Shown here piece after piece: positions 4,248 through 55,554 of a stretch of 64,000 bases of DNA. Under the pieces are notes generated by a model. That model had not been told where the DNA came from. It ran no database searches and was given only the letters and a program-made list of their open reading frames with translations. Position numbers and translations under genes: made by a program. Position 1 is the stretch's first letter. Each line of letters begins with the position of its first letter. Source of the stretch: Eledone cirrhosa (lineage: Eukaryota); assembly GCA_964016885.1 (NCBI GenBank), contig OZ024740.1, positions 423,460,001-423,524,000 on the forward strand. The letters run 5' to 3'.

Positions 4248-7200
4248 TCAAACTACAGACGTATATTCAGAGTGGTCCCGTTCACTCGCTACATTCACCC
4301 ACCTTTCAACAAACTTGCTAGAAAGCAGCACTTTCCTCTCCACCCTGATTTTCCTCTTCAAGTGAAACTTGAAAAAGCTAATTAGGAATTCGCCGAAGAG
4401 GAAAGTGTTTGTCTTTAATCCTTTTAACCTTGTCCACCACACAATCTCTTTCGCCATGGCCACCAGGCAGATGAAAACCGCCTGCCCTTCCTCCTCGAAG
4501 GAAGACGGCGAGACCATCTGCACAATGGACTCAGTCGACAACCGGATCAGTGCCACACGTGACAGCAACTGTTCGACATAGCTCCACAAGTCAGCAATGC
4601 TCGGGCACTGAACGAGTGCGTGCACAACGGTTTCGTCGCTATGCGCGCATCTCGGACAGGCTCGGCTGACGGCACTTCCGTGCCTGTAGAGCTTATCTCG
4701 AACCGGCAACGCTCCCCGGTAGCACTTCCAGGCCAGGGATTTTTGGAAGTTATCCATAGGCCCGGGCTGAAAGTTCTCCGGAAGAGAGCAAACAGCTGAT
4801 CTTCTTCGACGCCCAGGATCTCTCCGAGAATGTCGTCGCTCTTCCCCTCCACTAGTCCTCTATAGAACGCCGAGGTGGATGTTCCACTGATACTGGTGCC
4901 CAACTGGGAGAGGGCAGTGAGCGCCTGGAGACATTCCAGTTTCCAAGCGCTATCCCTCGGTCTTTTTCTGACCCAGGACTGCAGCTCTGTCAAGGAGACG
5001 AGCTGTGGGACAATGTGCATGGCGAACGGCGACCACACCCGTTCACCATCAAGGAAGCACCAGATATGTCGCAGCCTCAGCGCATGTTTGCGCATCATCA
5101 GCCATGGCATGCCCAGTCCTCCACGCAACGGGTGTTGACAGCAGATGGATCGTCTGACCATGGGAGCGCGTCCCTTCAACAAAAAGCGGAAGAGGAGGCG
5201 CTCCATTTTGGTGAGAGTTGGGCTGGAGCAAGGGACGACGGTGAGGCGGTAGCAGATGACGGATGCGATGTACGCATTCGCCACTTCCGCCCGGCCTTTC
5301 AGGGACAGCTTCCTCTCAGACCATTTCTGGGTGAGAGAGGCCACCCTGGTCGTCACTTCGTTCCAGTTTTTCTCCATCTGGAGGTCCGGTCCGAACCAGA
5401 CCCCGAGCAATTTAACCGGTCCGTCCGTCCAACGCCTCACGACGCTGTCGGACGGCATGGACTTGCCTCTCCAGGTGCCTAGCTGCAAGCCCACCGACTT
5501 TTCCTGGTTTATCTTTGCTCCTGTCACCGCTTCGTATTCCTTGAGAGCAGTGCCGAGCATCTGGACGTGTCTGGTGCTCGACACCACCACGGTGACGTCG
5601 TCAGCGTAAGCCGACTCGGATTTTCCGCATCCTAGTTCGCGTGGGACGCCCCTCATCGCCCCCAGTTTGTGCAGTAACGGCTCGAGAGCCAATACGTACA
5701 AGAGGGACGAGAGGGGACAACCCTGGCGGACTGAACGCATGATGCTGAACGGCTGCGACAGGTGACCGTTCACCCTCACAACTGAGCAGACGTCGCTGTA
5801 CATTGCTGCGATCCAACCTCTGAAAACGGGCCCGAAACCGGCTGCCTCGAGGACCGCGGCCATGTACCGATGGTCGACCCTATCGAATGCTTTGGATTGA
5901 TCCAAGTTGATCAGGGCCCTACCCTTGCCAGGTTCCTTAACCACCCTCTCTATGATGTATCGCATGAGGTGGAGGTTGTCGTGTATGGATCTGTCCGGAA
6001 TGGCGCATGTCTGCGCCTGTCCCACCAGACCCTTGACGACAAGCGCCAACCTCGTTGCTAACACCTTGGCCAAAATCTTGAACTCTGCGTTTAGCAGGGT
6101 CATGGGCCTGAAATTATCAATAACATCCCCCTTGTTCGGGTCTTTTCTCAGCAGCTCCACTGCTCCCCGGCTCACAAAACTGGGAATGCTTCCGTTCTGC
6201 TGCCAGTTGCAGTAGACGTCTGCCAAGAGGTCACCGAACAAGTCTGGCATAAATGCATAAAGCTCGTAGAGCAGACCATCTAAACCTGGCGATTTACCCC
6301 TTGTGCAGTTAGCCATCGCTTACCGTATTTCACCGGCTGTTATTGGCTTTTCGCAACACTGTGCTGCGGTCGTCGAGAGCCGAGGCAGTCCGTTGAGGTA
6401 TATCCCCGATCCGGGCCGCCGCCGCTCCCGAACAGTTCAGCAAAGTGCTGCTGAAAAGCTTCACACATCCGCTCGGGTTCGAGCATCACGCACCCGTTTT
6501 GGTCAGACAAAGACCAAATTGTGGCTTTCTTGCCACGTCGCGCCTCTGCCACCCGGGCCCATTCGGCTTTTGTCCCCTCGTGTTTCAGAGCACGCGCTCT
6601 AGCTCTGACAACGCAGCCTTCGTGTTTTGCGTTGAAGAATTGGTCGCGTGCCAATCTCGCCGCAAGCACGTCGGTTGCGATGCCTGTCCTAAACGCCTCT
6701 TCTAGCTTTCTGACTAGCTCTCCCTTTACTCTATTTTCCTCTATCACTACTCCTTTGCTAAACCTTATCGACTATACTTTAATTGCCCTTTTCAGGGCGA
6801 ACCACCACCTGTTGTTGACGACCGCTCCCGTCAACGCCCGCTTAACTAATACGCTAATCCGGTCTCTGTAGGCCTTGCGCGCCGGGAAAGACGCGTTCAG
6901 CTTCCAGTAACCAGGCCCTTGTCTATGAAGTCTGTCTATGTCGATCTCACAGTTCACAAATTTGTGGTCTGTGTAGTCGACTATTTTAAATTGTGGACAA
7001 CTTATACTAGCCTTATCTAGTTCCCTGCAGAATACCCTATCTAGATACGATTTGGATGACCCGATGCGGTTTGTCCATGTCCACATTGGCACATTCGGGT
7101 GATCCAGTCGATACCTGTCAGACAGTTAAAAACCTCTGAGCAGGTTGGTGAGGCTCTTGCACCCTCCTCCCCTATCCACTAGCCCCACACGATCTCAGCG

Positions 7201-7644
7201 TGCATCCAAGATACCGTTCCAGTCGCCCACTAACACTAAAGAGCGGGACGTTCCAAGAAAGGTCTCTAGACGTCTGAAGAAATCTGGCCGTCCTGCCCCT
7301 GTTGGGGCGTAGACGGCAACTAGCTTGAAAGCATTGCCTTCGCTGCCGGTCACGTCCAGCACCACCGACTTACCTTCTGGGTCCAGGAAGATGGCCCGTA
7401 TCGCGAGATCCAAGCCTCTCCGAAAAAGGACGGCAACCCCTCCCCCCGATCCTGGACGGCTGGGAGATGCGTATACATCGTAGCCGCCGAAGATCGGTGC
7501 GAAGGCCCGTGCCTCGGAGATATTGGTTTCACTGATGGCCACCACAACTATGTTTAGTGACCTGAGGTCATTGAGCAGGTGACCCTGCTTCCAAGATGAC
7601 CCCAGGCCACGTGCATTTTTACTGCCTATTCTGAGTACAGCCAT
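4248..7644 (-). pseudogene. Tx1 ORF2 (APE endonuclease, RT, C-terminal zinc motif), several frameshifts and stops
   Basis: VAISET, LVGDWN, YLDRVF, YTDHK (APE); GKSPGLDG, RQGCPLS, AYADDV (RT); CPRC..ETVVHALVQC. Confidence 0.9.
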
Positions 7645-7676
7645 GTTGGATGAGAAACGGGGCAAATGAGAAAGGG

Positions 7677-9755
7677 TCACTTACCTTGTTCGTGTGGTGA
7701 AGGGACAGTAGAACCGTCCCTTTCGCTGGTCATGGGTGTTTCCAAGAGGATGTCAGTGTATATCCTCTTGGTAACCGACCCTCTGAAGTCTCCAACTGCG
7801 TTGGTGAATTTTTGTTTTAAAGGTTTGTATTGTTCTATTGAGATTTCGATGATGCTTATGTTTGTTGGGAGATTTCTTGGTGTTGGTGGGGTGTAGTAGT
7901 TTTTTTCCGTGATGTCTGTGTGCTGCTTTATATATTTTATGAGTTCTTTTTTTGCTATGTTTATGGCTGTGTACTTTTTGGGGGGAGGGGTGATTTTGTT
8001 GCCGTTTTCTTCTTGTTGCTGTTTGGTGTGTGTGTCTTGTTGTGTTTGCGTTGTTGGTGTTTGTGGTGGTGTTGCTGCAAGTTTCCTTGCTGCCTTTACC
8101 CCTCTTTGTATGCCTTCGCTTTTGGAGGGTGAATCTAAGGGTTTTTTTCTTTTTTCTTTTTTGTGGCAGACTGTTTGCCACGTCACTCCCGCCTCAAACT
8201 CCATGTCGAATTCTGTGGCGTCTGGGAGGGGTATGTGCTCCACGGCTGTTGGTGGTGGTAGTGGAGCCCTCTTCGGCAATTTTGTTGCTGGTGTAGCTAT
8301 TTCAAATGTAGCTATTGGTGTTGCCGCTACTGATGATGCTGCTTTAGTTATCCGTGGCCTTGGTACGGGTGCTACGGACGTTGCCCTCCTACTCACCGTG
8401 GAAGGGGCTTCTTCGTTTGTTGCCTGTCCTGCTCTTGGTAGCAGCGGACCAGGTATTGGAAGGAGAGGGGCCCTCTTCGGTGTCTTCTGCGGGCAAAAGG
8501 CCCTGAGGTGACCTTTCGACCCACAGAGATAACATTTTGGCCGTCTTCCTTCTACACTTATAGGGAGTTGGAGTCCTTCCTCGAAGTCTACGATACATTC
8601 CTGGTCAGTTTGTATAAGCATTTGCATGCCTATACCTGACCAGTTCTCTCTCCCTATTTTTTCTACTTGCAGCATGGTCGCCCTGTTCTCAATTCCAGCA
8701 AGGACAGACGCGGCCAGCCAAGGTATGGGCACGTCGGGTGGGACCTGGGTCACTTTGACCCTCACAATTTTCTGCCCGCAGTAGGAGGGCACCAAGACTA
8801 ACTCCCCACTCTTTAGGGTTTCCAAAGAGTGAGACTTTGCTTCCTGGGGGGTGGCGAAAAGTACGTCTACTGTGGCGTACTTTCTGCCTCAGATGATGTG
8901 GGTTTTGCGTGCCCAGACGCACCCCAAGGCCTTTTGGATTTGAGCCTCCGTGGCTCTCTTCACTCGATGTGAGATTTTGCTTACGGTGCGGTAAGTCACC
9001 GTCCGTAGCTGCTGGTCCTTGAAAAAATCGGGTGGAGGTTTCAGGGAAACTCTATTTGCGCTTCTTGTCACCATGGCCCTTGCGACTGCCATCTCCTCCT
9101 CTGTGACTAACACTGTCTCGATATTTCGGGCGACACCTGCAAAAGAAGTGGTCCCTTTTTCAGCAGCACCACTATTGCTGCCGCTACTGGTCTTACTGGT
9201 GGTGATGAGGTCGCTATTACAGGTATCGGTGTCATTGTTGTTCTTTTCGCTGGCACAGTTGTTGGTGTTGTTTTCGTTGATACTGTTGCTGCTGTTACTG
9301 TTATTGTGGCTGTTGTTATTATTGTTGTTTTTGTTGATACTGTTCCTACTGTTATTGTTGTTGTGGCTGTTGTTATTGTCATTGTTATTGTCGTTCTCGA
9401 CCTTACCGCTGTTATTTTTGTTATTGTCGTTCTCGACCTTACCGCTGTTATTTTTGTTATTGTTGTTCTCGACCTTACCGTTGTTATTTTTGTTATTGTC
9501 GTTCTCGACTTTACTGCTGTTATTTTTCGTGTTGTTGTTGGTGATGTTGTTGGTGTTATTGTTGGTGTTGTTTGTGTTAGAAATATTTGGTAGTTTTAAA
9601 TCTGTAACAATCTTTTTTTCCTTTGTAATATTTTCGTTTATATTTACCTCCGCTGGAACGCTGTCTTGTTGACATGCTGATAAAGTCTCCCTCTCTCTGT
9701 GTTGTCTGACAGTGCTCTCTCTCTTTCTTGTATTATCCATGTTGAAATTTTTCAA
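7677..9755 (-). pseudogene. Tx1 ORF1 (Asn-rich N-terminus, SFAGVA motif, single zinc knuckle), frameshifted near 8890
   Basis: ORFs 8889-9755 and 7677-8825; CYLCGSKGHLRAFC; TWQTVCHKKEKRKK basic motif; lies just upstream of ORF2. Confidence 0.8.
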
Positions 9756-9959
9756 AAAAATTATTTTTACACAAATACGAATACGACACCCCGTAAAGGA
9801 GTGCCGTATTATTTACTAGTGAACCCCTGTATTAGGTGGGTCACTTCTTCTAAACTTTTATCAAATTTAAAACTTGAATAAAAGGTTTAGAACGGTTGAA
9901 AAAGAGGTAAAACGTTGAAAAAGACTGGAGGCGATAAGAAGCGTGGCTTCACCAACAAC

Positions 9960-9993: not shown

Positions 9994-10942
9994 GTAATAA
10001 TAATAAATTTGAAGACTAAGGTAAGTATATGTTACCTGTATGTTTTGTGAAGGTACGTATACTTTCTCGTACGTATATTTGATTGTATATGTTATGGCGT
10101 ATATTTTTTATATATTCTGGTACATATGCTTTTGGTTATGTGTATACGTGAGTTTTGCGTCTGTGTGAGTATGCGGATTCGTACGTATGTTGGGTGTGTA
10201 TATGTGTTCTTCGTGTTTTGGTTGACTTACGTCTCCAAACATTTGTGTATTTACATGTAGGTATGTGTGTGCGCTTGTTATATACGTATTTATTTATTTA
10301 TATACGTTTATTTAATTATTTATTTATTTGTATACACGCACACACATATTTATATGTGCGTGGTTTTGTATACCTATGGTAAGTGTTTTCGCGCATGCTT
10401 GTGTATGTACGTATTTGTATGCGTGTATTTATTTATTTAATTTCTATTACCTCTGTATTGTATTTATTTACTTTATTCTTAACTCTGAAGCGGAGAATCA
10501 TTCGGTCTCCTAGTTAGAATTTTAGTCTACGACTTCTGCTATACCATTTACCTGGTTTTGTCTTTGCGTGCAATTGTTCTCCACGCTCCACATATGACGT
10601 ATTATCTTCGTCTTTTTCGTTCATTGCCAGAGAACGTCTCTATGAACCACCTAAGAGAACATTAGTCTACGACCTCTTTTATACCATAAACGTGGTTCTG
10701 TCTTTTCGCGTAATTGTTTTTCACCGCTCCTATTAATGACGTATTATATTCGTTTTTTCCCGCTCTTTGCCAGGGAACGTTTCCACGAACCAAAGTATCG
10801 TCTTCCTGTCTTCCTCCGGTTGCAACGTTTTTTGAAATATCCACTTCTGCGTTTACAGATTGACTTTGCTAGTTTCAGAAGATCCCGTTAAGGGTGAAAG
10901 CAGCGATTCTTTGCTTTAACTTTAATCTGTTATTTTAATAAA
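9993..10942 (+). mobile_element. Non-coding pLTR-like repeat of a PLE family (CAGAAGA-hammerhead family) with inverted tail at its 5' side
   Basis: Highly similar to 35041-35939; terminal block recurs at 28612-28885, 34591-34830 (-) and 41921-42018. Confidence 0.7.
10871..10921 (+). ncRNA. Type-I hammerhead-like fold with variant core CAGAAGA
   Basis: agttt-CAGAAGA-tccc gttaa gggt-GAAA-gca(9 nt)tgc-TT-taact. Confidence 0.45.
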
Positions 10943-11081
10943 TATATATATATATATATTTATTAAAATAACAGATTAAAGTTTTTTATTATTACTATAT
11001 ATATATATATAACAGATTAAAATTTATTATTATTACTATATATATATATATAACAGATTAAAATTTATTATTATTACTATA

Positions 11082-13280: not shown

Positions 13281-13803
13281 AAAAACAAGAAGTGTAAGCC
13301 AACAGAGTAAAATTAGCCTCGTTTATTCATATTCGCTGCTATATATATACAACAGCTATGACCTCATCAGGCAGTAAGAACTTGAATAGAAAAAAACAGA
13401 AAAACAATGTAATAGATTTTACCTTGTTAATCCATTGATATGCTCAGATCCAGAGTGTGGTGTTAGTCCTCTAAGGAACTGAAAGCATATGCTTCCAGTT
13501 CCTCAGAGGTCTAACACCACACTCTGGTTCTGAGCATATCAATGGATTTACAAGGTAAAATATATTACGTCATGTTTTTTCTGTTCAAGTTCTTACTGTC
13601 TGATGAGGTCATAGCTGTTGAATAATGGCTATCACTGAAATATATATAGCAGCAAATATGAATAAACAAAGCTAATTTTACCCTGTTGACTTACACTTCT
13701 TGGTTTTACATTACTCTGGAGTAAACAGACCCAGCACACCTCGTTGAGTGCTCCAACCTGCACACTAAGGTGTCGGTAAACAACCAACACATACTCAAAA
13801 TTA
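13281..13803 (+). mobile_element. Palindromic PLE pLTR-like module with hammerhead and 3' tail
   Basis: Spacerless inverted repeat centred at 13488/13489; tail 13708-13803 resembles 42860-42958. Confidence 0.7.
13596..13652 (+). ncRNA. Type-I hammerhead ribozyme with minimal palindromic stem III
   Basis: ctgt-CTGATGA-ggtcatagct...ggctatcact-GAAA-tatata-TA-gcag. Confidence 0.75.
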
Positions 13804-14128: not shown

Positions 14129-15525
14129 GTGGTGTGGATGGGGTAGGGGTAGTGGGACGGGGGTGTATTTTTGTTAGAGGTGCCTACTGACTGTAGTAGG
14201 TTTCACTTTGTACTTAGATAAGGCGGGTCTTTGTATGACTGTGTAGCGCCAAAGATCTCGGTCCAGTGACATTGTCTTGGAGAGGTGTAAGTGTGTGAGG
14301 TCGGAATTTATCAGATCGTCCCAGGTTTTTCTGGGTCTGCCTACTCCGTCGCTACCGTCTATTTTTATTGCCCTGCACTTTTTTATACAGCTGTCGTCTT
14401 TCATGCGCATCACGTGACCGTATCAACGTAGTCTTCTCTCGAGTAAACAACATCTGATACCTCTTATTTCTAATTTTTCTCTTAGTTCGTTTATGCTTTG
14501 CCGTTCACATATATTACTATTACACATGCAGCGGAGCATGCAAGCTTCGTTCCTCTCCAGTCTGCGTATATCCTCTGCACACAATGCCCAGGTCTCACTG
14601 CCATGTAACATTGCTGTTCGTATGCAGGCATCATACAGCCTGCCTTTCATTTTTAGAGAGAACCCTTTAGCGGCTAATAGTGGTATAAGCTCTCGGAACT
14701 TTTTTCCATCCAGTTCTGACTCTAGCTACTGTACTTTCAAAGCACCCTCCACCACTGCTGATTTTGTCACCCAGGTAACTGAAGGTGTCCACTATTTCTA
14801 TAGAACCATCTGTGCAATGGAATGAGCTAGTATTCTGTGGGCACTTGCTGCTACTTATTGCACCAGAGCACCGGCCACATATAAAATCTATATTCTTAGT
14901 TAGTTTACCTGTGATCCTACTACATCTTTTATGCGCCCAGACTTTGCATTTGGGACATAAAATGGAGTTTCTGCCTACTCCTTTCCTACACACTGAGCAT
15001 GGCCATTTCCCAGATGGGACCAGTGCCCTATTTTCCTTCCTACAAACTAGAACTTTAGTCTTAGACAGGTTAATTTTAAGACCTTTTGACTCTAGGCCAT
15101 GCTTCCATGTTTGGAATTTCTTCTCTAGTTCAACCATTGATTCAGCTATGAGCGTTATATCATCTGCGTATAGGAGTTCCCATGGGCAGCCGGTCTTGAA
15201 CTCCTCTGTTATAGCCTGAAGGGCAATAATAAATAGTAGGGGGCTAAGGACGGAGCCCTGATGAACACCAACTTTTACGCTAAACTCTTTCGTGGTTAAT
15301 TCTAACCTTGCTGACTGTTTCTTTATACTCACAAGCCATTCATCAACACCAGATAATGGAGTGGAGGACTTTGTCAAAGGCTTTCTCCAAGTCAACAAAA
15401 GCTAAGTATAGGGGTTTACTTTTAGTTAGGTACTTCTCCTGTAGTTGTACAATGAAAAGAGCGTCTCTGGTACTTTACCTGACACAAACCCGAACTGCAT
15501 TTCATCTAGATCAATTCGCTCTCTG

Positions 15526-16620: not shown

Positions 16621-16768
16621 GTTGTTATACTTTGGGAGGGTCATGTTGCCAATAAGAAACACACGCACCAGTTGCTTTCACTTCAATTTATTATATATTT
16701 ATAAATTTACAAATTTATAAATTTCTGGTTGGTTGGTTGGTTCCACAACCAGATAGTTGTTTATATAT

Positions 16769-16813
16769 AGTCATAGTTCTTTCGTCACACACTCTGTGAC
16801 CTCTTCAGTGACT
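16769..16813 (-). ncRNA. Type-I hammerhead in PLE pLTR
   Basis: Reverse complement of 18938-18982. Confidence 0.8.
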
Positions 16814-17015
16814 GGGGACTCCTTTCTTTGTTTCTGTGCCTCTCCTTTGTTCTGTCCTACGCCATTTTGTTTCTGTGTGTGTGTTGTGTGCTCAGTCTGC
16901 GCATGCGCCACATCCGGGTGTCTGTGTGTGTTTATGTTCATTTATCTATTTGTTTATTTACATGTTACTGGTTGGTTATTTGTTCTATGTGTCTGTGTGT
17001 GTTTTCATTTTGTCC

Positions 17016-18671
17016 TTAATTGTAAGTTGTGATGTTGCTGTTCCACTCATATTTTCTATTTAATTTTGGTTGTAATTCTTTTATGTTTATTGCCTCTGTA
17101 ATTTGTCTAAACATTGCGTCTTTTCTGTGTGTAGATTCTATTTTTATTTCTATGTTCTCTAATTTACCCTTGTGTTCTATCTTAGCATGTTGGTTGAGTA
17201 CAGTTGATTCTTTATTATCTTGAAGGTCTCGCCAGTGTTCATTTATCCGTTCCCCTACGCTACGAGCTGTCTCACCTATGTACACTATATTTTTGTCTCT
17301 ACATTGTCCTTCGGTACATCTTATGCTATACACTACATTTCTAGTTTTACAGTTAATATGGGGGCTTATTTTACAGGTTATACATTTCTTATCTATACAT
17401 GAGGGTCTTTGAAAAGGGTATGTCTTGCTAATAAGTGTTTTTACGGAGGTACCTGGTCTTTCTACTATCTTAATATTGAGTTTATGTTTATTTAGGGCCC
17501 TTCTAAATTTGTAAGCTAGTTCACCTCTAGGGGTTGTATCGATGAACATTACACTCTGGTATTTATTGCTATCATACCATAAGTTTATTCTATTAGCCTT
17601 GTTCCTAGTTCTTTCTATTCTATTCCAAAATTTGCTCCTATACAAGGGGCAGGTCCCATTTATGTCATTATTTACCATTTTTTCCCATTTGGTTCTGGTT
17701 CCTCTATATACTCTGATTCTATCTCTCTGATTGTAGCCAGATTACTGCATACGGTGGATGAAGTGTTGTATGTGTCTCTCTAGTTCTTCGGGGTTGCACA
17801 CGCGGGACACATTTCTCATCACCCGTACCAAATCCGCAATCAGTATGTTGATTTTGGTATGGTCCGAAACGGCCGAGTTTCGGTGGATCAGATGTTTGGA
17901 AGTCATGGGTTTGGCATAATGGGAATGGAGGATTTGTTTTTTGTTGTTAATGGTATCTAACCAGAGCTCTGTGTCTAGTACAGGTAATCGATGGTTGGGG
18001 TGTTTACTTGGGTAGTCTATAGTAACTCTAATGCTCTGGTGGATGGAGTTTGCTATTTGCTGGATGCTTTCCATTGTGTTTTTCTCTAGTTCCTGACTGT
18101 TCTCTAGTGGGGGTGTCTTAACTACGATGTTTATATCATCTACGTAGCGGGAGTACATTATCAGGGTTAAGGGGTCTTCTAATTGTTCTTTAAGTTTAAG
18201 TTTAAGTCTACTGTCCCACCATACCATGAATAAGTTAGCTATGTCGCCTGCAATGCTAACACCAATGGCTGCTCCTTCCTCTTGGGCATATGTTTTTCCA
18301 TTAAATTTGAACATATGTTCCTTAAGGGTTAGTTTTATGCTGGCCCCTACCGCATGTGCAATCATTTTCTTCAGTTCATCGTGGTTTTCGGGTGTCCGTA
18401 TGGCTCTGGTCCACCCGTTCCATCTATCTGTGTGGGTTTTCTTGGCCATTGAGGTAATGGTAGGTGGTCTGCCTCTTGCTGGTCTTGTAGGGCACAGGTT
18501 GCTAAGGTCATATGTGTCTAGGTAACTATTACTATAGGTAAGCTTAAGTAGGAGTCCCAGCTCACTGGTATCAATCCCACGGAACTCAACCTTGCTCTCA
18601 CTGATCATTTCTACGCATTTCTCCACAGCAAAATCCACGTCAATAGATGGATACAGGGACACAACATCCAT
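17016..18671 (-). pseudogene. PLE RT plus GIY-YIG endonuclease, one in-frame TAA at 17742-17744
   Basis: DVVSLYPSI, GAAIG, YSRYVDDI, LPVLD; NVVYSIRC..YIGETARSVGERINEH; the two ORFs share a frame. Confidence 0.9.
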
Positions 18672-18937
18672 ACTGCCTATTAAATAGAATTAAATAGAAA
18701 ATATGAGTGGAACAGCAACATCACAACTTACAATTAAGGACAAAATGAAAACACACACACACATAGAACAAAGAACCAACCAGTAACATGTAAATAAACA
18801 AATAGATAAATGAACATAAACACACACAGACACCCGGATGTGGCGCATGCGCAGACTGAGCACACAACACACACACAGAAACAAAATGGCGTAGGACAGA
18901 ACAAAGGAGAGGCACAGAAACAAAGAAAGGAGTCCCC

Positions 18938-18982
18938 AGTCACTGAAGAGGTCACAGAGTGTGTGACGAAAGAACTATGACT
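18938..18982 (+). ncRNA. Type-I hammerhead in inverted PLE pLTR
   Basis: agtca-CTGAAGA-g gtcaca gagtg tgtgac-GAAA-gaac-TA-tgact. Confidence 0.8.
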
Positions 18983-19248
18983 ATATATAAACAACTATCT
19001 GGTTGTGGAACCAACCAACCAACCAGAAATTTATAAATTTGTAAATTTATAAATATATAATAAATTGAAGTGAAAGCAACTGGTGCGTGTGTTTCTTATT
19101 GGAAACATGACCCTCCCAAAGTATAACAATATCGGTTTCAACGCACGATTTCAGATAAAGAATCTTGCTAAACAAATTCAGAAACGAAATATATATATAT
19201 GTATATATATATATATGTATGTATATATATATATATATATATGTATAT

Positions 19249-19759
<511 letters not shown>

Positions 19760-20835: not shown

Positions 20836-21074
20836 CAACAAAGGAACGCTGTACTAATTTCAAGCTTATTAGCTATCATCAGCAACGTATACCTTCCTGC
20901 CAGATGGTTGAACATCTGAAAGTATATACTTTCCTTATGCATATTAACGGCTGAGCAGCCTAATTTGCATATCGAGTGAGTTAATCGGCCGGGGTACCGA
21001 AAACGATAAACGGAAAAAATGAAACGAAATTTCATTTCCCACTCTTAGTACGACTGTTACTTAAATATAAGTAT

Positions 21075-28611: not shown

Positions 28612-28882
28612 CGTTCTTTGCCAGCGAACGTTTCCACGAACCAAAGTATCGTCTTCCTGTTTTCCTCCGGTTGCAACGTTTTTTGAAATATCCAGTTCTG
28701 AGTTTACAGATTGACTTTGTTAGTTTCAGAAGATCCCGTTAAGGGTGAAAGCAGCGATTCTTTGCTTAAACTTTAATCTGTTATTTTAATAAATATTTGC
28801 TCTACGGTTCTTATATATTTGATATATATTTATCCTTATCGAGCCCTCTTTGGATTTTAGCCTTCAATTTTATTATTATTAC

Positions 28883-28950: not shown

Positions 28951-31801
28951 TCAAGTCGCTCTATACAGTCAATCCCCACGCCGACGGCTTACGTGCCCTC
29001 AAGCTTGTGACCTCGACCTTCGCCCCTCCTCCATCCCCTCCACCCCCACCCTCCTTCGCCTCGCCGAGCTGGTCCTCACCCTCAACCATTTCTCCTTCTC
29101 GGGTGAGTTTTACCAACAGGTCACGGGGGTAGCCATGGGCACAAGAATGGGCCGAAACTATGCCAACATTTTCGTTGGCCATGTTGAGGCACAAATCTTT
29201 GCCCAGTACACCGGCCCTACGCTCGAACTGTACGGTCGTTACATCGACGACTGTATCGGAGCCACGACCCTCACCCGAGAACAGCTCGACTCCTTTCTCT
29301 CCTTCTTCTTCTCCTTCCACCCCTCCCTCCACTTCACCACCTCTATCTCCACCACCCACGTCCACTTCTTAGACATCTCCGTCGCCTTCGACCCCTCTCA
29401 CCACTCCCCCGTCACCTCCGCCTTCTTCAAACCCACCGACTCCCACTCCTACCTCGACTTCACCTCTTCCCACGCTACACACACTAAACACTCTATTCCC
29501 TACTCCCAACTCCGCCACCTCTGTAGCCTAGATGCTAACTTTGAGTCCCAGGCCCTTTCCCTAGTCAGCCATTTCATCCGCAGAGGTTATCCCCCCTCTC
29601 TCGTCCACACCACTCTCACTTGCGCCCGTGCTGTCCACCGCTCCATCACCCTCACCCCACGCCACCGCACACCCACCCACCGTCTCCCCTTCCCCATCAC
29701 CTACCACCCCTCCACCCTACCTCTCCACCGCACCATCCTCCGCCTCTTCCGACGCCTCCGGTCTGACCCCTCCACCTCCCACATCTTCCCAGCCCCACCA
29801 CTCCTCTCCTTCAAACGCGCACGCAATCTCCGCACCCTCCTCGTCCGCAGCCGCCCCCGGTTCCCTTCCCTGTTCCATGCCTCGTTGCAACACCTGTCCC
29901 CACATCACCAACACCACCACCTTCCAGGGTCCCAACGGCCACTCTCTCTCTGTCCGGCACGCCTTCCGCTGCACCTCCTCCAACCTAGTCTATGGACTTC
30001 GCTGCACGGAGTGCAGCGCAACCTACGTCCGACAGACTGGACGTCGCCTGGCGGACCGTTTTACCGAACACCTCCGGGATATTCGTCTCGGCGGTAGTTC
30101 CCCCATCGCCCGCCACTTTGGGTCCCCTGGACATTCCGCGCACCACCTCACAGTCTGTGGCCTACTCCAATGCGACGGAACACCCGCCACCCTCCTCAGG
30201 GTCGAACAACGCACCATCTTCACCCTACAGACCCACACTCCCCTCGGCCTGAACTCCCCACCCCTATTCGACCGCCGTGTCCCCCCTACACACACATATC
30301 CCCCACTAACACTACTAACACACTCCTCCTTTTCACCGCCCACCTCACAACTAACAATACTAACACCCCCACCTCACACCCGACCACCCTTCCCCAATTA
30401 ACAATACTAACATCCTTTCTTTCCCCCCTCTCCTTATCACGCACACACCCACCGGTACATATATACACGCACTCACACTAACCACACACCCTACTACAAC
30501 CACTAACCCTCACCCACACATCCACTCCCACCACCCCACAACTAATACCACTAACACCCCCCAACCCCACGCACACGAACACACACACCCACCCACACCC
30601 ATTTGCACCACCCACTCTACACACCCTACCACCACTGACCCCCACTAACACACCCACATTCAACCCTATCCCCACCACCAGTATACTAACACCCACTAAC
30701 ACCCCCTTCACCACACACACACTCATCCAAACACGCACACACACACCAGTACACTACACTCCCTCCATCCCCCCCACACACCTTTCTCTCCCCGCTCCAC
30801 CCACACCCCTTCTCACACACACACATCCCACTAACACGTCTACTAATGCACCCCTCCCCACTCCACCTTTCACACCTACCCATCCTCTCCCCTGTCCACC
30901 GCACCTCCGCACACACTGACACACCGACTTTCTCCACCTGCGATTCTCCCTACTGCTGCTATGCCCTGACCCTCTGACCACCTCTCCGCACACACAGACA
31001 CACAACCCTCCTCCTGTCTTGACCCTCTGACCACTTCCTGTTGCGCGCGCACCCCACATCTCCCCTCTTCCGACCAACCCAACCACGGATTACACACATT
31101 GGACATCGCTCCCACGAATCAACTGCATCACAAGGAAATTATCCGGCAACCCACCACACCCTCTACGGAACTACCTTAGGAACATACCCACGGACATACA
31201 CTCACAACAATTTTTTCCCACACGCCACCTACATCCACAATACGTATAAACACCACACACACGTGCGTACCACCACATATTTACACACTCAGTCTCCGGA
31301 ATCCCCCCTCTGACCCCCTCCCCATCCACGCACGCGCACACACACCGACCTACACCCCAACCCACACACACCTTTTCCTGAACATGGAACCCCGTTCTTC
31401 CACCAACTCTCACATTCACATACACACACACGTACACCTACACACACACACCACCTTCAGCCCTCCCCGCTCGGACACCCCGCCTCCCTCTCCCCACTCC
31501 ACCCGCCACCGCCCCTACACGCCCCACACCCTTCCGCCACTTGTTTATCTTCATGCTTATTTTTATTTTTATTCTGTTTTTATATTTATTTTCATTTGTA
31601 CCGTTTCCTCTCACCCCCTTTTTTCTAAATGTATCTACCGCACTCCCCTACACACCATTGGAAATCTCTTCCCACACACTTTTCGCCTGAAGAAGGGCTT
31701 ATGCCCGAAACGTCGTTCCCCACCACCACCCCACTCTCAAGAGCGTGAAACTAATAAACCTTTGTTCGTACTGCCTCTCTGTTTTGTTCCCGTTCCATTT
31801 T

Positions 31802-34501: not shown

Positions 34502-34590
34502 ACTTAGGAACAGTTTAGGTATGATACATTTTATTACTAATTATATCTAAATGTTTCTTCTCTCTTCATAATGTATATATATATATATAT

Positions 34591-35939
34591 ATTTATTAAA
34601 ATAACAGATTAAAGTTTAAGCAAAGAATCGCTGCTTTCACCCTTAACGGGATCTTCTGAAACTGACAAAGTCAATCTGTAAACGCAGAAGTGAATATTTC
34701 AAGAAAGGTTGCAACCGGAGGAAGACAGGAAGACGATACTTTGGTTCGTAGCAAAGTAGATAGACGTAGGAAGACGATACTTTGGTTCCTTGGCAAAGAA
34801 CGGGAAAAAACGAATATAATACGTCGCGCCGCTGAGGCCCTGGAAATACTCTACGCCACAGACCACATCTTAAACAAAAAATCTGAGGCAATTTCGGCTT
34901 GTAAACATAAATTGCACAAAACTTTCCTGTATTACAGCCCCACATTATACCCTAACGGATAGTACGATCTATACGCGGATATTTTACGTCCTGATGTGGT
35001 AGTTAAGTATATGTAATGTTTATACCATTACTTATTTGATAGGTAAGTATATATTACCTTTATGTTTTGTGAAGGTACGTATACTTTCTCGTACGTATAT
35101 TTGATTGTATATGTTATGGCGTATATTTTATATATTCTGGTACATATGCTTTTGGTTATGTATATACGTGAGTTTTGCGTCTGTGCGAGTATGCGGGTTC
35201 GTACGTATGTAGGGTGTGTGTATATGTGTACTTCATGTTTTGGTTGACGTGCGTCTCCGAACATTTGTGTATTTACATGTAGGTATGTGTGTGCGCTTGT
35301 TATATACCTATCTATTTATTTATATACGTTTATTTAATTATTTGTATACACGCACACATACACACACATATTTATATGTGCGTGTATTTGTATACCTATG
35401 GCGAGTGTTTTCGCGTATGCTTGTGTATGTACGTATTTGGTTGCGTGTATGTATTTATTTAATTTCAATTACCTCTGTATTTTATTTACTTTATTCTTAA
35501 CTCTGAAGCGGAGAATCATTCGGTTTCCTAGTTAGAATTTTAGTCTACGACTTCAGCTATACCATTTACGTGGTTTTGTCTTTGCGTACAATTGTTCTCT
35601 CCGCTCCACATATGACGTATTATCTTCGTTTTTTCCGTTCATTGCCAGAGAACGTCTCTATGAACCACCTAAGAGAACATTAGTCTACGACTTCTTTTAT
35701 ACCATATACGTGGTTCTGTCTTTGCGTGTAATTGTTTTTCACCGCTCCAAATAATGACGTATTATATTCGTTTTTTCCCGTTCTTTGCCAGGGAACGTTT
35801 CCACGAACCAAAATATCGTCTTCCTGTCTTCCTTCGGTTGCAACGTTTTTTGAAATATTCACTTCTGCGTTCACAGATTGACTTTGTTAGATTCAGAAGA
35901 TCCCGTTAAGGGTGAAAGCAGCGATTCTTTGCTTAAACT
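34591..35939 (+). mobile_element. PLE 3' end (CAGAAGA family): inverted pLTR piece 34591-34830, ORF tail, then pLTR
   Basis: EALEIL..ILNKKSEAISACKH resembles a PLE endonuclease C-terminus; hammerhead-like folds at 34613-34663 (-) and 35889-35939 (+). Confidence 0.65.
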
Positions 35940-44627: not shown

Positions 44628-47600
44628 TCTTCTGGTTTTATAATTTCACAAAGTTTTACCAATAGAGAGAGAGTCGATTTCTAACATAGACACAAGACTC
44701 TCTCATTGGAATTTACACATCAAATAGGTAGATATGTATGTATGTCTGCATGCATGCATGTGTAGATATGGATGTTATTGTATGTGTGGATGTGGATGTT
44801 TTGAGTTGTATGTGTGCATGTGTATATGCTTTGTATCTGTACATGTGTATATGCAGTTATTAGATGCAAAAGTTTTGGAATGTTTTACATATTTTTACTG
44901 TTCCATTAATGGATTGTACTTGTAATTTCCTAACTAGTTGTGTTCTTTCTGTTCCTGTGAAGCCTAGCTTCTCAAGATTTGTATTGAGGCAGTTACTAAC
45001 ATATCCCAGTGCCCCAATAATAACAGGCATAAATTTGAAGGTATAATCAGGGTGGAGTATCTGCAGATTTCTCATCAGTTCTGCATAAATATTCTCCTTT
45101 TTACTAATCTTTGATATTATATTGGCATCTGCTGGGCAGCTAATTTCCACTACTGTGCATGCTTTCTTCTCCCTGTCTCATATCATAATATTTGGTCTGT
45201 TATGCCTGCATTTTATTGGAGTTTTTACTGGAACATTCCACCAGTACTCTTTCATATTATGTACATGGATGTCTTCCACATTGTTGTAGCTTTTAATGTG
45301 TTTGTTATCGGGGCTATCTTTTTTACGAACTGCATTGTAGTGTTTTGGCCACTACATCATGCCTCATAGGTAGATAATACTGCGATGACATCTTTGGGCA
45401 GCTGCTCATGACATGGGTGATATCCTCGATGTTAGTTCTGCAGAGTCTGCACTTGTTATCACATCTAGGTGTTTTGCCTGCATCCCTATCTCTTTTGTGA
45501 ATCAGGTATTTCGTGCTAATCTCCTGTTCTTGGATTGCAAAAGCGTATCCTTCAAAGTGGGAGCCAATATAGCGGTTGTTGGTCCAATATAGACTACTTT
45601 CCTTATCTATATTACTCTCACTCTGGAGCTTCCTGGCAACATATCCATGCATGGTTTTTTGCTGATAGGCATGCAGTTTTTCATCCATGGATTCACTGCG
45701 ATACTGCTGAGCGACATCCCTGGGTGTGAGTTTTTGATTATAACACAGGGAATATCTCTCAAGGAGTTCCTTCCTAACTCTCATGATCTTATCTGTTTCA
45801 TGCAGATAGACTTGCTCGAGAAGCGGGCTCCTACGCTTCGAGGTTCGTAGATGTTGTCGGAAAGATATGATGCGACATTCAAATGTTGTCTGGACTGATG
45901 TTAAGCCTCTGCCTCCCTGCTTACGTTTCAAGTAAAGGCGGTCTATGTCACTGTTGATGTGGAAGTTTCCGGTGTTGTTCAGTATTTTTCGAGTTCCAAC
46001 ATCAACTGCTCGGATTTCGTCTATCGTCCAATTGAGTATTCCAAACGTTGGTGTTAGGACAGGCACAGCAAACACATTGTGAGCCACTGTTTTGTTTTGC
46101 GCAGAGAGTTCTGATGACCAGATCTTTCTTAATCGGGTGTAGTATTCCCTGGTTACGCGTTCTTTATTACAGATACCATTATAGGATATGTTCTAATCTA
46201 TCCCCAGGTATCTGTAGCAGTCCTCATCAGATATCGGTGAAACAGTTAGACCATTGATGACAATGTTGCTAGATTGGGTTGTTGTTTTTTCCCGCTTTAC
46301 AGTCCTATATCCTTTGAGAATGTTGTAACCAGGTCAAGATTTTTCTTCATCCCATCCATGTTCTTGGCATAGAGTTTCAGATCGTCCACAAAGAAGTTAT
46401 GGGTTAGGTTCGTATTTCTGTCCTCCTGTGAGCCAATGATGTATCCCTCACATTTCTTGAGCAGAAAGGACAAGGGGTTTAATGACAAGATGAACAATAT
46501 CACAGAGAGACTGTCCCCCTGAAATATACCCCTGCAATATTTTATTTTATCAGTGAAAATAGAGTCCTCTCTCTCTGTCTTTAACCTTAGGATAGTAGCC
46601 CAAGAAGAAGACAGCCTCTCTATGGCTCTGACAATAATGTCTGGGACTTTAGCAAGCTGGAGGGCCTCTATCATCCAAGAGTGGGGAACCGAATCGAAAG
46701 CTTTCTTGTAGTCCAGCTAGACTGTAGTCATATTCCTCCTAAGTTATCGCACCTCCGACATCGCAGTTTTGTTGATTAGGAGTTGTTCAGCACATCCCCA
46801 AACCCTTTTCTTTCCAGCTGCTTGTTCATCTGTGATGATGTTATTATTTTCACAGTGATCTTGGAGGAATAGGTTGAGGCAGGCTGTATACATCTTATAC
46901 ATCAGGTTCTGGCATGCAATGGGTTGGTATTTTTTTGCCAAGTGGGTGTCTTTGTTCTTGGGGACCAGTAACGTTTGCGCTAATGTCAACCATTCTGGTA
47001 TAAGTGTATCTCCCTTAAGAACTTGTTAGTAGAGGTCAGTAAGATACCTCCGATAGAATATTAGTTTTTTGTACCAGTAGCCGACAATCATGTCTCTTCC
47101 TGGTGTTTTCTTATCTTGGAGTTTTCCTATCACAGTCTCAAGGGTACCCTCACTTATTTCGTATGTTTTTGTTGTAGTGTAGGAGCAATAGTTCTTTCGG
47201 ATTTCTCTTAGCCACACTGCATCTTGGTTGAAATTCTTCTTTTCACCCCATATTTTTCTCCAAAAGGAATCTATGTCTTTCTGGGATGGGGCCTCAGTGA
47301 CACTTATTATTTTGCCCTTCATATCTCTATAGACTGATGTTTGGTTTCGTCTGAATCTTTTATTAAGCATTTTTCTCTCATCTACCTTCTTCAGGTATCG
47401 GCGTTTTTCGCTAACAGCTCTCAATTCTTGTTTGAAGATGATCAGCTTATATTGGAGAGTTCTGGTTCTACTGTTACCAAACATCGTCTCTATTTTATTT
47501 TTCACTCTTTGTTGGTGAGAAGTGAGGGTTTTTTGTGTTTGTTTGCATGTAAGGAGCATTATCACATGTCCTATGTTTTTTCGTAGGTCAGCACTCTTTT

Positions 47601-48970
47601 TTTCTATTTTAGTTATATATGATGGTATTTTTGGTGGTGTTTTGTTCTTGTTAATATTGTGGTTAGAAAAAGCTATCTCACTTACCGCTTTTCACAGGCG
47701 CCGCTAAATTCCACTGCAGGTACTCCTCTTCCACGTGCGTCCAACAGCTTAACACCGGGAGCTGCCCAAAACGCGCGTCCACACCGTGTGCTGGTCACCA
47801 CTAGAGAGAGGCCCTCTGCTGGCCCTTCCGGTCGAGCATCCTTCCGGCCCAAAACCCCTTCCGGTCGAGCACTCCCCCGCCTCCGGCCACCGCACGCCAC
47901 ACCATACCCATAAATATCTCTGCTACCACCAAGATAATGCTTCACTGTCATTGCTAAGGCATATAAACAGGCGTTGATTTGCCAAAATGTTGGGGTTTTT
48001 ATCCGTCGTAAATATTCATCCCCTATTTCGTCAATAACACGTAGTATTTCATTATTTGGTTTTTTATTCACCATTGTCATTTTAACACGTTCAGCCAGAG
48101 AGATATTTATACATGAGTTAATTTCTCTCTGGAAGATTTCGTTGAGGGAAATTTTCAATTGTTTATACTTTTGATTATCATTATCGATAGTATTTTCCAC
48201 AACAGTCGAGGTAGACTCGGATGGTATACGTGGTGTCAAATTTCTTCGATTATTATTATTATTATTTCTTCGATTATTATTATTATCGATAGTGTTTTCC
48301 CCAGCATTCGAGGTAGACTTAGATGGTACAGGCATAGTTGTTTCAAGGCGCTGTTCGACCTGGCTGCTAGGAAGTCTAGTAGCATAGTGATCTGTAGCAC
48401 GTGTTGTTGATTCCATGTTTGTTGTGGGGGACTTACAATTAATAATATTTATCTTATTTTTACGTTCAACAAACGTCGCTTGTTGGCGTAATTGTTTCGC
48501 TGTGAAATAATTTAGCTCTGGGTGCATTTCGTCCCAGTGTAGCTTCATTCTATTCATATAGCCAATGGAGGGATTGTTTTTTGCCATTTTATAACAATTA
48601 AATAAATCATTATTAAGTTCGCAACTCCAAGAGAAATGCGATTTATAATTTCGGTTTCTTCTGTAGCTACAACTGAATAAAGTTTGATTATCTTCTTTGT
48701 TATTTGTCTTCGATACTTCCTTAATTTTCTTGTTGATGTTGTGTTCAGCCATGCTGTTTGTAGCAAATCCTTGTAAAATGAATTATGTATTTAGTCGGAT
48801 ATCTCTACGAATTCGAATAAAAGGTGTCTTCAGAAGGGATAGTTAGAAGAATAACCAGTTATTCAACCTGGCTGTAGTTGTGGCATTACTGTCGGAGATA
48901 GTATTCATCTTAAATTTAATAAATAGTCTCCCACGCCAAAATATGCGACTGATCGCGTTGACTGGTGGAA
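44626..48970 (-). mobile_element. Apparently full-length R4-like RLE non-LTR element (family A), decayed, in (CATA)n
   Basis: N-terminal FSW..YMNRMKLHWDEMHPEL; YQPIAC, GIFQGDSLS, FFVDDLKLY, CRLC..HVMSSC, RHD, NRPNI, EISCP. Confidence 0.88.
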
Positions 48971-51725: not shown

Positions 51726-52189
51726 TGGTCACTATATATGTGTCTACAACAATGGCTACTGTTGGTACGTTGGAGAAATGCTATAAATAAATGATGAAAT
51801 CATTACTCCTCACTTCTAAAGAGTTCCACTCAAATCAAGGTAATTACCTGCAAATACATTCACAACTCTCCACATATTTTACACTAGTCTTAATTATTTC
51901 TATGGGGAGAAATTAAACCACACACACATACACACAGATACACACACACATACATACACACAGTTACACACATACACACAGACACGCACAGATGCACATA
52001 CACACGCAGACACACACATATACACACACATACACACAGATACACATACACACACATACCCCCCCCCCCCTACACACACACATATATTGCTAAGCTAAAA
52101 CAATATCGACAGAGAACAATCTTTAACCTAGATTTAATTCCCAGAAAACCATTCCACTTCACTTATTGATGTTGTCGGCAAAAGACATA

Positions 52190-55100
52190 AATACTACCTC
52201 TACCACCCCTTTAACCACCCTACTAAATACAATAGTACCTCTACCACCCCTTTACTCATCCTACTAAATACAATAGTACCTCTACCACCCCTTTACTCAT
52301 CCTACTAAATACAATAGTACCTCTACCACCGCTTTACCCACACTACTAAATACAATAGTACCTGTACCACCCCTTTACCTACCCTACTAAATACAATAGT
52401 ACCTCTACCACCCCTTTACTCATCCTACTAAATACTATACTACCTCTACCACCCCTTTATCCACCCTACTAAATACAATACTACCTCTACCACCCCTTTA
52501 CCCATCCTACTAAATACAATAGTACCTCTACCACCCCTTTACTCATCCTACTAAATACAATAGTACCTCTACCACCGCTTTACCCACACTACTAAATACA
52601 ATAGTACCTCTACCACCCCTTTACGCACACTACTAAATACTATACTACCTCTACCACCCCTTTACCCACCCTACTAAATACAATACTACCTCTACCACCC
52701 CTTTACCCATCCTACTAAATACAATAGTACCTCTACCACCCCTTTACCCACCCTACTAAATACAATAGTACCTCTACCACCCCTTTACTCATCCTACTAA
52801 ATACAATAGTACCTCTACCACCCCTTCACCCACCCTTCTAAATACAATAGTACCTCTACCACCCATTTACCCATCCTACTAAATACAATAGTACCTCTAC
52901 CACCCCTTTACCCACCCTACTAAATACAATAGTACCTCTACCACCCCTTCACCCACCCTACTAAATACAATAGTACCTCTACCACCACTTTGCCCACCCT
53001 ACTAAATACAATAGTACCTCTACTACCCCTTTACCCATCCTACTAAATACAATAGTACCTCTACCACCCCTTTACCCACCCTACTAAATACAATAGTACC
53101 TCTACCACCCCTTTACCCATCCTACTAAATACAATAGTACCTCTACTACCCCTTTACCCATCCTACTAAATACAATAGTACCTCTACCACCACCCTACCG
53201 ACCCTACTAAATACAATAGTACCTCTACCACCCCTTTACTCATCCTACTAAATACAATAGTACCTCTACCACCACCCTACCGACCCTACTAAATACAATA
53301 GTACCTCTACCACCCCTTTACCCACCCTACTAAATACAATAGTACGTCTACTACCCCTTTACCCATCCTACTAAATACAATAGTACCTCTACCACCACCC
53401 TACCCACCCTACTAAATACAATAGTACCTCTACCACCCCTTTACTCATCCTACTAAATACAATAGTACCTCTACCACCACCATACCCACCCTACTAAATA
53501 CAATAGTACCTCTACCACCCCTTTACCCACCCTACTAAATATAATAGTACATCTACCACTCCTTTACCCACCCTACTAAATACAATAGTACCTCTACCAC
53601 CCATTTACCCATCCTACTAAATACAATAGTACCTCTACCACCCCTTTACCCACCCTACTAAATATAATAGTACATCTACCACCACTTTACCCACCCTACT
53701 AAATACAATAGTACCTCTACCACCACTTTACCCACACGACTAAATACAATAGTACCTTTACCACCACCCTACCGACCCTACTAAATACAATAGTACCTCT
53801 ACCACCCCTTTACCCACCCTACTAAATATAATAGTACATCTACCACCACTTTACCCATCCTACTAAATACAATAGTACCTCTACCACCACCCTACCGACC
53901 CTACTAAATACAATAGTACCTCTACTACCTCTTTACCCACCCTACTTAATACAATAGTACCCCTACCACCCCTTTACCTATCCTACTAAATACAATAGTA
54001 CCTCTACCACCCCTTTACCCACCCTACTAAATACAATAGTACCTCTACCACCCCTTTACCCATCCAACTAAATACAATAGTACTTCTACCACCACCCCTT
54101 TACCCACCCTACTAAATACAATAGTACCTCTACCACCACTTTACCCACCCCACTAAATACAATAGTTCCTCTACCACCACTTTACCCACCGCACTAAATA
54201 CAATAGTACCTCTTCCACCACTTTGCCCACCCCACTAAATACAATAGTACCTCTACCACCACTTTACCCATCGCACTAAATACAATAGTACCTCTACCAC
54301 CATTTACCCACCGTACTAAATACAATAGTACCTCTACCAGCACTTTACCCATCCTACTAAATACAATAGTACCTCTACCACCACTTTTCCCACCCCACTA
54401 AATACAATAGTACCTCTACCACCACTTTACCCACCGCACTAAATACAATAGTACCTCTACCACCACATTTCCCACCCCACTAAATACAATAGTACCTCTA
54501 CCACCACTTTTCCCACCCCACTAAATACAATAGTACCTCTACCACCCCTTTACCCACCCTACTAAATACAATAGTACCTTTACCACGACCCTACCCACCG
54601 CACTAAATACAATAGTACCCCTACCACCACTTTTCCCACCCCACTTAATACAATAGTACCTCTACCACCACGTTACCCACCCCACTAAATACAATAGTAC
54701 CTCTACCACCACTTTACCCACCCTACTAAATACAATAGTACCTCTACCACCACGTTACCCATCCTACTAAATACAATAGTATCTCTACCACCACTTTGCC
54801 CCCCTACTAAATACAATAGTACCTCTACCACCACTTTGCCCACCCTACTAAATACAATAGTACCTCTACCACCACTTTGCCCCCCTACTAAATACAATAG
54901 TACCTCTACCACCACTTTACCCATCCTACTAAATACAATAGTACCTCTACCACCCCTTTACCCTCCCTACTAAATACAATAGTACCTCTACCACCACTTT
55001 ACCCATCCTACTAAATACAATAGTATCTCTACCACCACTTTGCCCATCTTACTAAATACAATAGTACCTCTACCACCACTTTGCCCACCCTACTAAATAC

Positions 55101-55554
55101 AATAGTACCTCTACCACCACTTTGCCCACCCTACTAAATACAATAGTACCTCTACCACCACTTTGCCCACCCTACTAAATACAATAGTACCTCTACCACC
55201 ACTTTGCCCACCCTACTAAATACAATAGTACCTCTACCACCACTTTGCCCACCCTACTAAATACAATAGTATCTCTACCACCACTTTGCCCATCTTACTA
55301 AATACAATAGTACCTCTACCACCCCTTTACCCTCCCTACTAAATACAATAGTACCTCTACCACCACTTTACCCATCCTACTAAATACAATAGTACCTCTA
55401 CCACCACTTTGCCCACCCTACTAAATACAATAGTACCTCTACCACCACTTTGCCCACCCTACTAAATACAATAGTACCTCTACCACCACTTTGCCCACCC
55501 TACTAAATACAATAGTACCTCTACCACCACTTTGCCCACCCTATAAAATACAAT
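52190..55554. repeat. 41-bp satellite, about 80 units
   Basis: Unit CTACTAAATACAATAGTACCTCTACCACC(C/A)CTTT(A/G)CCCACC. Confidence 0.97.

Follow-up and report, generated by a model that had tools for sequence, protein, structure and literature searches.

U4 is normally a fixed letter of the hammerhead core, and a hammerhead-like motif with A in its place, found in the genome of Eledone cirrhosa, raises the question of whether such a core is an active variant or belongs to a disabled ribozyme. The first-pass annotation of the 64,000-nucleotide stretch analysed here (contig OZ024740.1, positions 423,460,001 to 423,524,000; hereafter the window) posed the question in this either/or form. The letters of the motif were as described there, and read, on the plus strand from 28722 to 28772, AGTTT CAGAAGA T CCC GTTAA GGG T GAAA GCAGCGATTCTTTGC TT AAACT. 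Its parts, all on the plus strand, are as follows.

28722..28772, the hammerhead-like motif, type I, with A at core position 4 (A28728)
28722-26/28768-72, stem I
28727-33, core
28734/28746, U-U closure of stem II
28735-37/28743-45, stem II
28747-50, GAAA
28750-54/28762-66, stem III
after 28767, predicted cleavage point
28706-14/28773-81, within 28706..28781, outer helix of 9 bp, predicted by folding
28715-21, bulge of 7 nt next to the outer helix

When compared with the canonical core C3 U4 G5 A6 N7 G8 A9, the motif fits at six positions and fails at U4, A4 being fixed. G12 A13 A14, the A15.1-U16.1 pair and H17 are all present (as GAAA and C-U-U), and are the same in the old subfamily; the last base of loop II is A in most copies. 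Because the motif resembles a type I PLE hammerhead, but the canonical core fails at U4, we classed it as a hammerhead variant. Stem III does form as annotated, although with 5 bp (one of them G-U) and a 7-nt loop upon folding rather than 4 bp and a 9-nt loop. The 9-bp outer helix, which the annotation overlooked together with a probable capped 5' end at the start of the motif, would be formable only in RNA reading through from upstream, at the 3' pLTR. The three helices can pair around the core in type I order, yet this is not the predicted minimum-energy fold of the 51-mer, which has core-with-core pairing in place of the hammerhead three-way junction, and the stability of the 51-mer does not exceed that of its shuffles (z -0.03); folding energy alone, therefore, does not support a hammerhead. 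Upper stem I paired poorly in each of the six folds, at a predicted 0.00-0.08 irrespective of whether position 4 was A or U.

All five copies in the annotation's list were located in the window and all five have A4; the start given as 41951 is corrected to 41950, and the minus-strand copy spans 34613-34663. The four besides 28722..28772 are 94-99% identical to it (E 1e-31 to 1e-72 with a 221-nt query), and three of them (10871, 35889, and 41950) carry private damage.

10019..10945, plus strand, element copy with intron and with the hammerhead at 10871, which has one stem I mismatch
34589..34757, minus strand, inverted pLTR piece containing the hammerhead at 34663-34613
35889..35939, plus strand, motif copy with one stem I mismatch, its 3' end cut at 35939 and without AATAAA
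41950..42020, plus strand, short motif copy cut at the core, without the 5' strand of stem I and reading CAGAAAA (G8 to A)

The same letter is found throughout the family. Exact 30-mer matches genome-wide numbered 19,311 for A4 versus 88 for U4. Among 84 young copies, taken in order from the list of 3'-anchor matches and unselected on the core, 66 of the 68 that covered position 4 had A4, as did 65/75 copies of older subfamilies with different loops and with A, U or G at N7. When the old subfamily was re-sampled outside the core (68 copies from 70 loci of 343 3'-anchor matches, so that the core was not selected on), A4 was found in 31/35, and the remaining four, with T, were fold-back junctions. 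A looser search gave 1,214 CTGA-core matches, a candidate U4 subfamily; however, 39 of the 41 matches sampled (in 40 loci, from the first 100 listed) were fold-back insertion junctions centred on core position 4, where one strand reads T, and we rejected it. These false U4 readings arise from fold-back junctions at the micro-palindrome TTC-A-GAA; about a thousand insertions have their fold-back junction exactly on core position 4 (for example, L148-L187). No U4 ancestor of the lineage was found among the subfamilies sampled in the genome. These results show that A4 is old and fixed in this lineage, a family trait as the annotation had it and not the decay of one copy; the CTGAAGA consensus on which that claim would have foundered is not the consensus of the family, which has A4 in young and old copies.

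The motif is housed in a Penelope-like retrotransposon (PLE), whose pieces in the window are these, all on the plus strand.

28612..28882, 5'-truncated PLE copy between (TA)n tracts
ending at 28624, splice acceptor AG in that copy
28788-93, AATAAA in that copy
28796-28882, 87-nt 'tail' in that copy
34828..34962, end of the RT-endonuclease ORF (AAEALE...CKHK...YPNG stop)
35043..35791, retained GT-AG intron in the pLTR, about 750 nt

The annotation had placed the motif upstream of AATAAA in a PLE pLTR, and at the 28722 copy 15 nt separate the two; the PLE-like ORF tail that it noted near 34830-34960 proved to be the end of the RT-endonuclease ORF. Copies of the element have their 3' ends near AATAAA or past the 87-nt tail, and lie in (TA)n surroundings, the insertion target of the Hydra clade. 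A tandem unit of 3,218 bp at locus L031 has the order pLTR, tail, ATG, RT, GIY-YIG, pLTR, its ORF being broken in that copy; the element thus has a single ORF, with RT followed by a C-terminal GIY-YIG nuclease, and pLTRs in tandem or inverted arrays. Marks reported for the Hydra clade are RWK, DKT, a CxCX5C linker, CxxC and CxH, and no CCHH (PMC8557442). The element protein has RWR (a conservative variant of RWK), DKT, CNCRNRADC (CxCX5C), CDLC (CxxC), and CKH (CxH), is without CCHH, and has one Cys between IVY and YIG. Identity as a Nematis or Neptune PLE was rejected, as the CX2-5CxxC linker and CCHH motif are absent. The protein had 616 homologues at E<=1e-20, the best with 47% identity; no Pfam family matched any of its four pieces at E<=0.1, and a phage sequence search with the element gave no match. 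By protein motifs, target and pLTR layout the element falls in the Hydra clade, and the motif, judged from these sequence features, is the pLTR hammerhead of a Hydra-clade PLE. The family is large, with 35,985 genome matches to a 20-nt 3' anchor. The pLTR intron was revealed by a contig joint. Most copies retain it, but 194 genomic copies have lost it exactly; these intron-less copies are a direct DNA trace of spliced templates and show that the element moves through spliceable RNA.

The window holds other elements as well. Canonical hammerheads at 16768-16814 (minus strand) and 18937-18983 (plus strand) form an inverted pair with CUGAAGA, G15.2-C16.2, and a CUA triplet, adjoined by a PLE-like RT and GIY-YIG ORF at 17019-18689 (minus strand). 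Canonical or minimal hammerhead-like motifs occur at 31681-31750 and at 20846-20888 (minus strand), and a PLE-type RT motif in the region 28964-29368. Decayed non-LTR retrotransposon ORFs lie at 4251-9812 and 45326-48782 (both minus strand) and at 14234-15401, and from their motifs we take them to be L1/Tx1-like and RTE/R4-like. A tandem array at 52050-55300 has about 80 copies of a 41-nt unit.

Homology to known hammerheads was assessed through relatives of the element. Rfam gave no hammerhead family among the 150 of 158 matches listed (E<=10). In 78 metagenome loci of protein relatives, a hammerhead descriptor had 67 sense-strand hits versus 2.4 per shuffled pass, and both pLTRs of some elements were among them. 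These hammerheads have the same place in the pLTR, the U-U closure and the short stem III of the A4 family. At core position 4, they have U in 64, C in two and A in one, a low-scoring hit that probably arose by chance. C at position 4 was seen in a related Hydra-type family (L115 and L136, CCGAUGA/CCGACGA), and a U3-A8 swap in the relatives L074, L095, and L107. A covariance model was built from 35 of 56 extracted candidates (the short, distinct and clean ones), with the A4 family left out. Three window copies were the top 3 of its 20 hits, at 16.9, 16.1, and 15.2 bits (E 0.016-0.051, a rough value), which supports the annotation's hammerhead homologue in a PLE pLTR; natural U4 copies scored about 7 bits above A4 copies in this model. 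By these likenesses the motif is a hammerhead homologue. Stem covariation, the check that the annotation had proposed, was present among the 35 relatives (score 0.69 versus 0.19 shuffled, the relatives having been picked for pairing) and absent inside the A4 lineage.

The published table of Hydra-clade hammerheads has CUGA in 26/26 rows, with the U-U closure and U17 frequent (PMC8557442). Thus, the U-U closure, the formed stem III and U17, which the annotation had singled out, are ordinary in Hydra-clade PLE hammerheads, and as these features are usual in the published rows only A4, with a flipped 15.2-16.2 pair and a longer loop III, is unusual; the flipped G15.2-C16.2 pair occurs also in the canonical hammerhead at window position 18937. 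A sister Hydra-type PLE family in the same genome (loci L032:1574-2662, minus strand; L050-L069; L368-L437), with 37,796 anchor matches, has U4 in 65/65, a canonical CUGANGA core, a long stem II and a variable N7. Relatives of the sister-family hammerhead are present in the window at 19452-19514 and 13594-13654.

To judge whether the fold has been kept, the majority bases of old and young subfamilies were compared. None of the 46 stem and core positions had changed, versus 7/20 in loops, bulge and N7 and 18/84 in the upstream flank (Fisher P 1e-4 and 3e-4, respectively); P was 0.001 with three CpG sites left out of the comparison. Paired positions alone gave 0/32 (P 0.006), and the outer helix was unchanged at 0/8 positions, its bulge having changed at 3/7; N7 differs between the subfamilies. 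Conservation of the 14 core positions alone was not significant (P 0.12), and no compensatory pair changes were found between old and young A4 copies. This pattern fits constraint at the level of RNA, and is no proof of catalysis; given the core-only P value and the lack of compensatory change, promoter constraint at the level of DNA can explain part of it.

The 5' ends of element copies point to a transcript start on the motif itself.

28720..28725, plus strand, initiator-like TTAGTT, with A28722 as the probable capped +1

TTAGTT, and the TCAGTT of the older subfamily (C at 28721 in 12/19 old copies), presumably resemble the initiator (Inr) consensus. The 5' ends of 28/84 copies fell within 28717-28731, about 11-fold the per-base rate upstream. 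Nine of the 84 ended exactly at A28722, and in seven of the nine a G preceded that base although T is templated there; other 5' ends followed G in 6/40 (counted by eye). Genome-wide, G preceded A28722 in 709+919 = 1,628 of 21,970 copies, and a control A 16 nt upstream had a preceding G in 11 as compared with 709 at A28722. In 42/42 loci with the extra G that were read, the upstream sequence was non-template, so these are true junctions. Inverted arms often terminate in the complement of the extra G, and for 3/12 G's the arm could have been the template. A stood in place of G in 434 copies, which likely arose in part through stem I microhomology. Spliced-leader trans-splicing was rejected as the source of G, the upstream sequence not being constant. 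The sister canonical family had no pile-up of 5' ends at its own hammerhead. Run X4 showed a stronger rise in contig depth across the motif than X1 did, but contig depth cannot show a start and was set aside. The near-identical X5 and X6, labelled as other organisms and with depth under 20, were not counted as related species. Copying of the cap has been proposed as the source of untemplated G at the 5' ends of retrocopies (PMC3287187), and we infer that capped RNA starts at A28722, the first base of stem I; a C added by terminal transferase would give the same signal as a cap-derived G. The first ATG is at +205 from A28722, with none earlier.

As for cleavage, 174 copies began at the predicted site versus 373 and 287 at neighbouring control sites. 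In the sister canonical family, 0/67 copies began at the cleavage site; because a canonical family also shows none, such ends are uninformative on activity. A 29-nt inverted piece (10984-10956) that follows the copy at 10019..10945 begins at position 1.1 and was considered as cleavage run-off; with the site not enriched genome-wide (174), we regard it as an ordinary case. In a type III hammerhead, single changes in CUGA are reported to give low activity, and in a full pairwise scan CUGA mutants were not rescued by a second change except for the C3-G8 swap (PMC9901934). A contact links U4 to the A6-N7 phosphate; a U4C change leaves little activity in vitro, although a viroid manages with it (PMC3088659). 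PLE hammerheads are described as slow (PMC4209133), and cleavage by that of the Anolis PLE PAc needs protein and is dispensable for insertion in vitro (PMC11167929). A4 further allows A4-U11.1 and C3-G12 pairing (UUUCA with UGAAA), with predicted masking of C3 and G12; this is the lowest-energy fold of the 51-mer. The core-hiding pair probability was 0.14-0.41 in young copies with A4, and about 0 in one natural U4 copy and in the one old A4 copy folded; the prediction is of a hidden catalytic core in a fraction of the molecules. With the remainder of its fold unchanged across old and young subfamilies, the motif is likely a self-cutting RNA that has been slowed or silenced.

Between an active variant and a disabled ribozyme, these data favour a case in the middle, in which the fold is under selection and catalysis is probably weak. 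We think it fairly probable that the fold is still selected and that self-cleavage is slow or nil, in effect a throttled pLTR ribozyme. An internal promoter would give capped RNA from the first base of stem I, so that the message would open with the 51 nt of the motif, the ATG following some 200 nt further on. Rapid self-cleavage of a monomer at this 5' end would take off the 46 nt that bear the cap, and a weakened core may therefore have been tolerated or favoured; the start site may have moved first and the ribozyme weakened afterwards. Possible uses of the retained fold are slow processing helped by protein, or binding of the protein that the element encodes. The canonical sister family is just as successful (37,796 anchor matches), so that U4A brings no evident benefit. 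A bolder form of this, that the natural U4A hammerhead still cleaves, tuned slow or switched on by the element protein as a 5'-end decapping timer, we hold only tentatively. If true, the timer would choose between translation and use as template, and descriptors built on a CUGANGA core would overlook such motifs by the tens of thousands.

That the hammerhead is fully active, with A4 offset by the element's protein, the long outer helix, the flipped 15.2-16.2 pair or the strength of stem III, is in our view unlikely. Full activity would account for the constancy of all stems and of the other core letters across subfamilies in which N7 and the loops vary, and for the conserved outer helix; cleavage of a PLE hammerhead can be protein-assisted (PMC11167929), and the missing cleavage-site ends, being shared by the canonical family, do not count against it. 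Against this must be set the failure of second changes to rescue CUGA mutants, apart from the C3-G8 swap, in another hammerhead (PMC9901934), the presence of U4 in 64/67 of the relatives' hits and 26/26 of the published Hydra rows, and the weak predicted stem I. We consider equally doubtful that the motif is a dead relic, its sequence kept for overlap with a core promoter (initiator, +1 to +50) and with 3'-end reverse-transcription signals. The motif does begin at the probable +1, compensatory changes are lacking and core-only conservation is not significant, and there are precedents in the Inr/DPE internal promoter of the Penelope pLTR (PMC2377424) and in the many PLEs that thrive without canonical hammerheads (PMC8557442). 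However, the changes that did occur fell on loop II, loop III, the bulge and N7 and left each helix intact on its two strands, the outer helix upstream of +1 among them (0/32 paired positions changed, P 0.006), and a promoter is not expected to track RNA pairing so closely. That U4A was kept as a TTTCAG splice acceptor for the retained pLTR intron is very improbable: TTTCAG fits a 3' splice site, and the D. virilis Penelope intron ends at helix I (PMC4209133), but the 194 intron-less copies use an acceptor 97 nt upstream and no copy has its junction at the CAG of the core or at the neighbouring TTAG.

The role of PLE hammerheads is described as an open question (PMC8557442), and the two Hydra-type families of about equal size in this genome (about 36,000 and 38,000 anchor matches), one canonical and the other with long-fixed U4A, amount to a natural experiment on it. 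The comparison bears on two possibilities, namely that a PLE can be highly successful without catalysis, or that the hammerhead core can bear a change regarded as near-lethal. The closest known systems are the Hydra-clade PLE hammerheads (Craig et al. 2021, PMC8557442), which share the place in the pLTR before AATAAA, the type I layout, the U-U closure, the formed stem III, the common U17, the (TA)n target, and DKT, CxCX5C, CxxC, and CxH; the hammerhead listed there for Penelope-1_NV is that of our metagenome relative L125. In contrast, the 26 Hydra-clade rows have CUGA and C15.2-G16.2 where the A4 family has CAGA and G15.2-C16.2, and a loop III of 1-3 nt as compared with 7 nt; the 750-nt pLTR intron and 3.2-kb unit also set the A4 family apart from them. 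The minimal PLE hammerheads (Cervera and De la Pena 2014, PMC4209133) and PAc (PMC11167929) share the pLTR location, the extra nucleotide after A9, a low expected intrinsic activity and a tail structure with two 3' ends, but keep U4 and are mostly without stem III. The core change reported for the minimal hammerheads is U3-A8, and CAGANGA is absent from the searched supplement (PMC4209133). Natural core variants (Perreault et al. 2011, PMC3088659) likewise have rare changes and low real activity, and include the viroid U4C and U10.1-U11.1; the core-variant text of that paper does not name U4A, and its variants are single sequences, whereas the A4 family has more than 19,000 copies. In the literature searched, supplements included, we found no record of a U4A hammerhead family, an earlier listing being possible. 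Finally, in L1 and SVA insertions, too, an untemplated G stands ahead of the transcribed sequence (PMC3287187); here, by contrast, the presumed cap-derived G belongs to a PLE and adjoins the base with which a ribozyme helix begins. This cap-like G would map a PLE transcription start from DNA alone, onto that very base.
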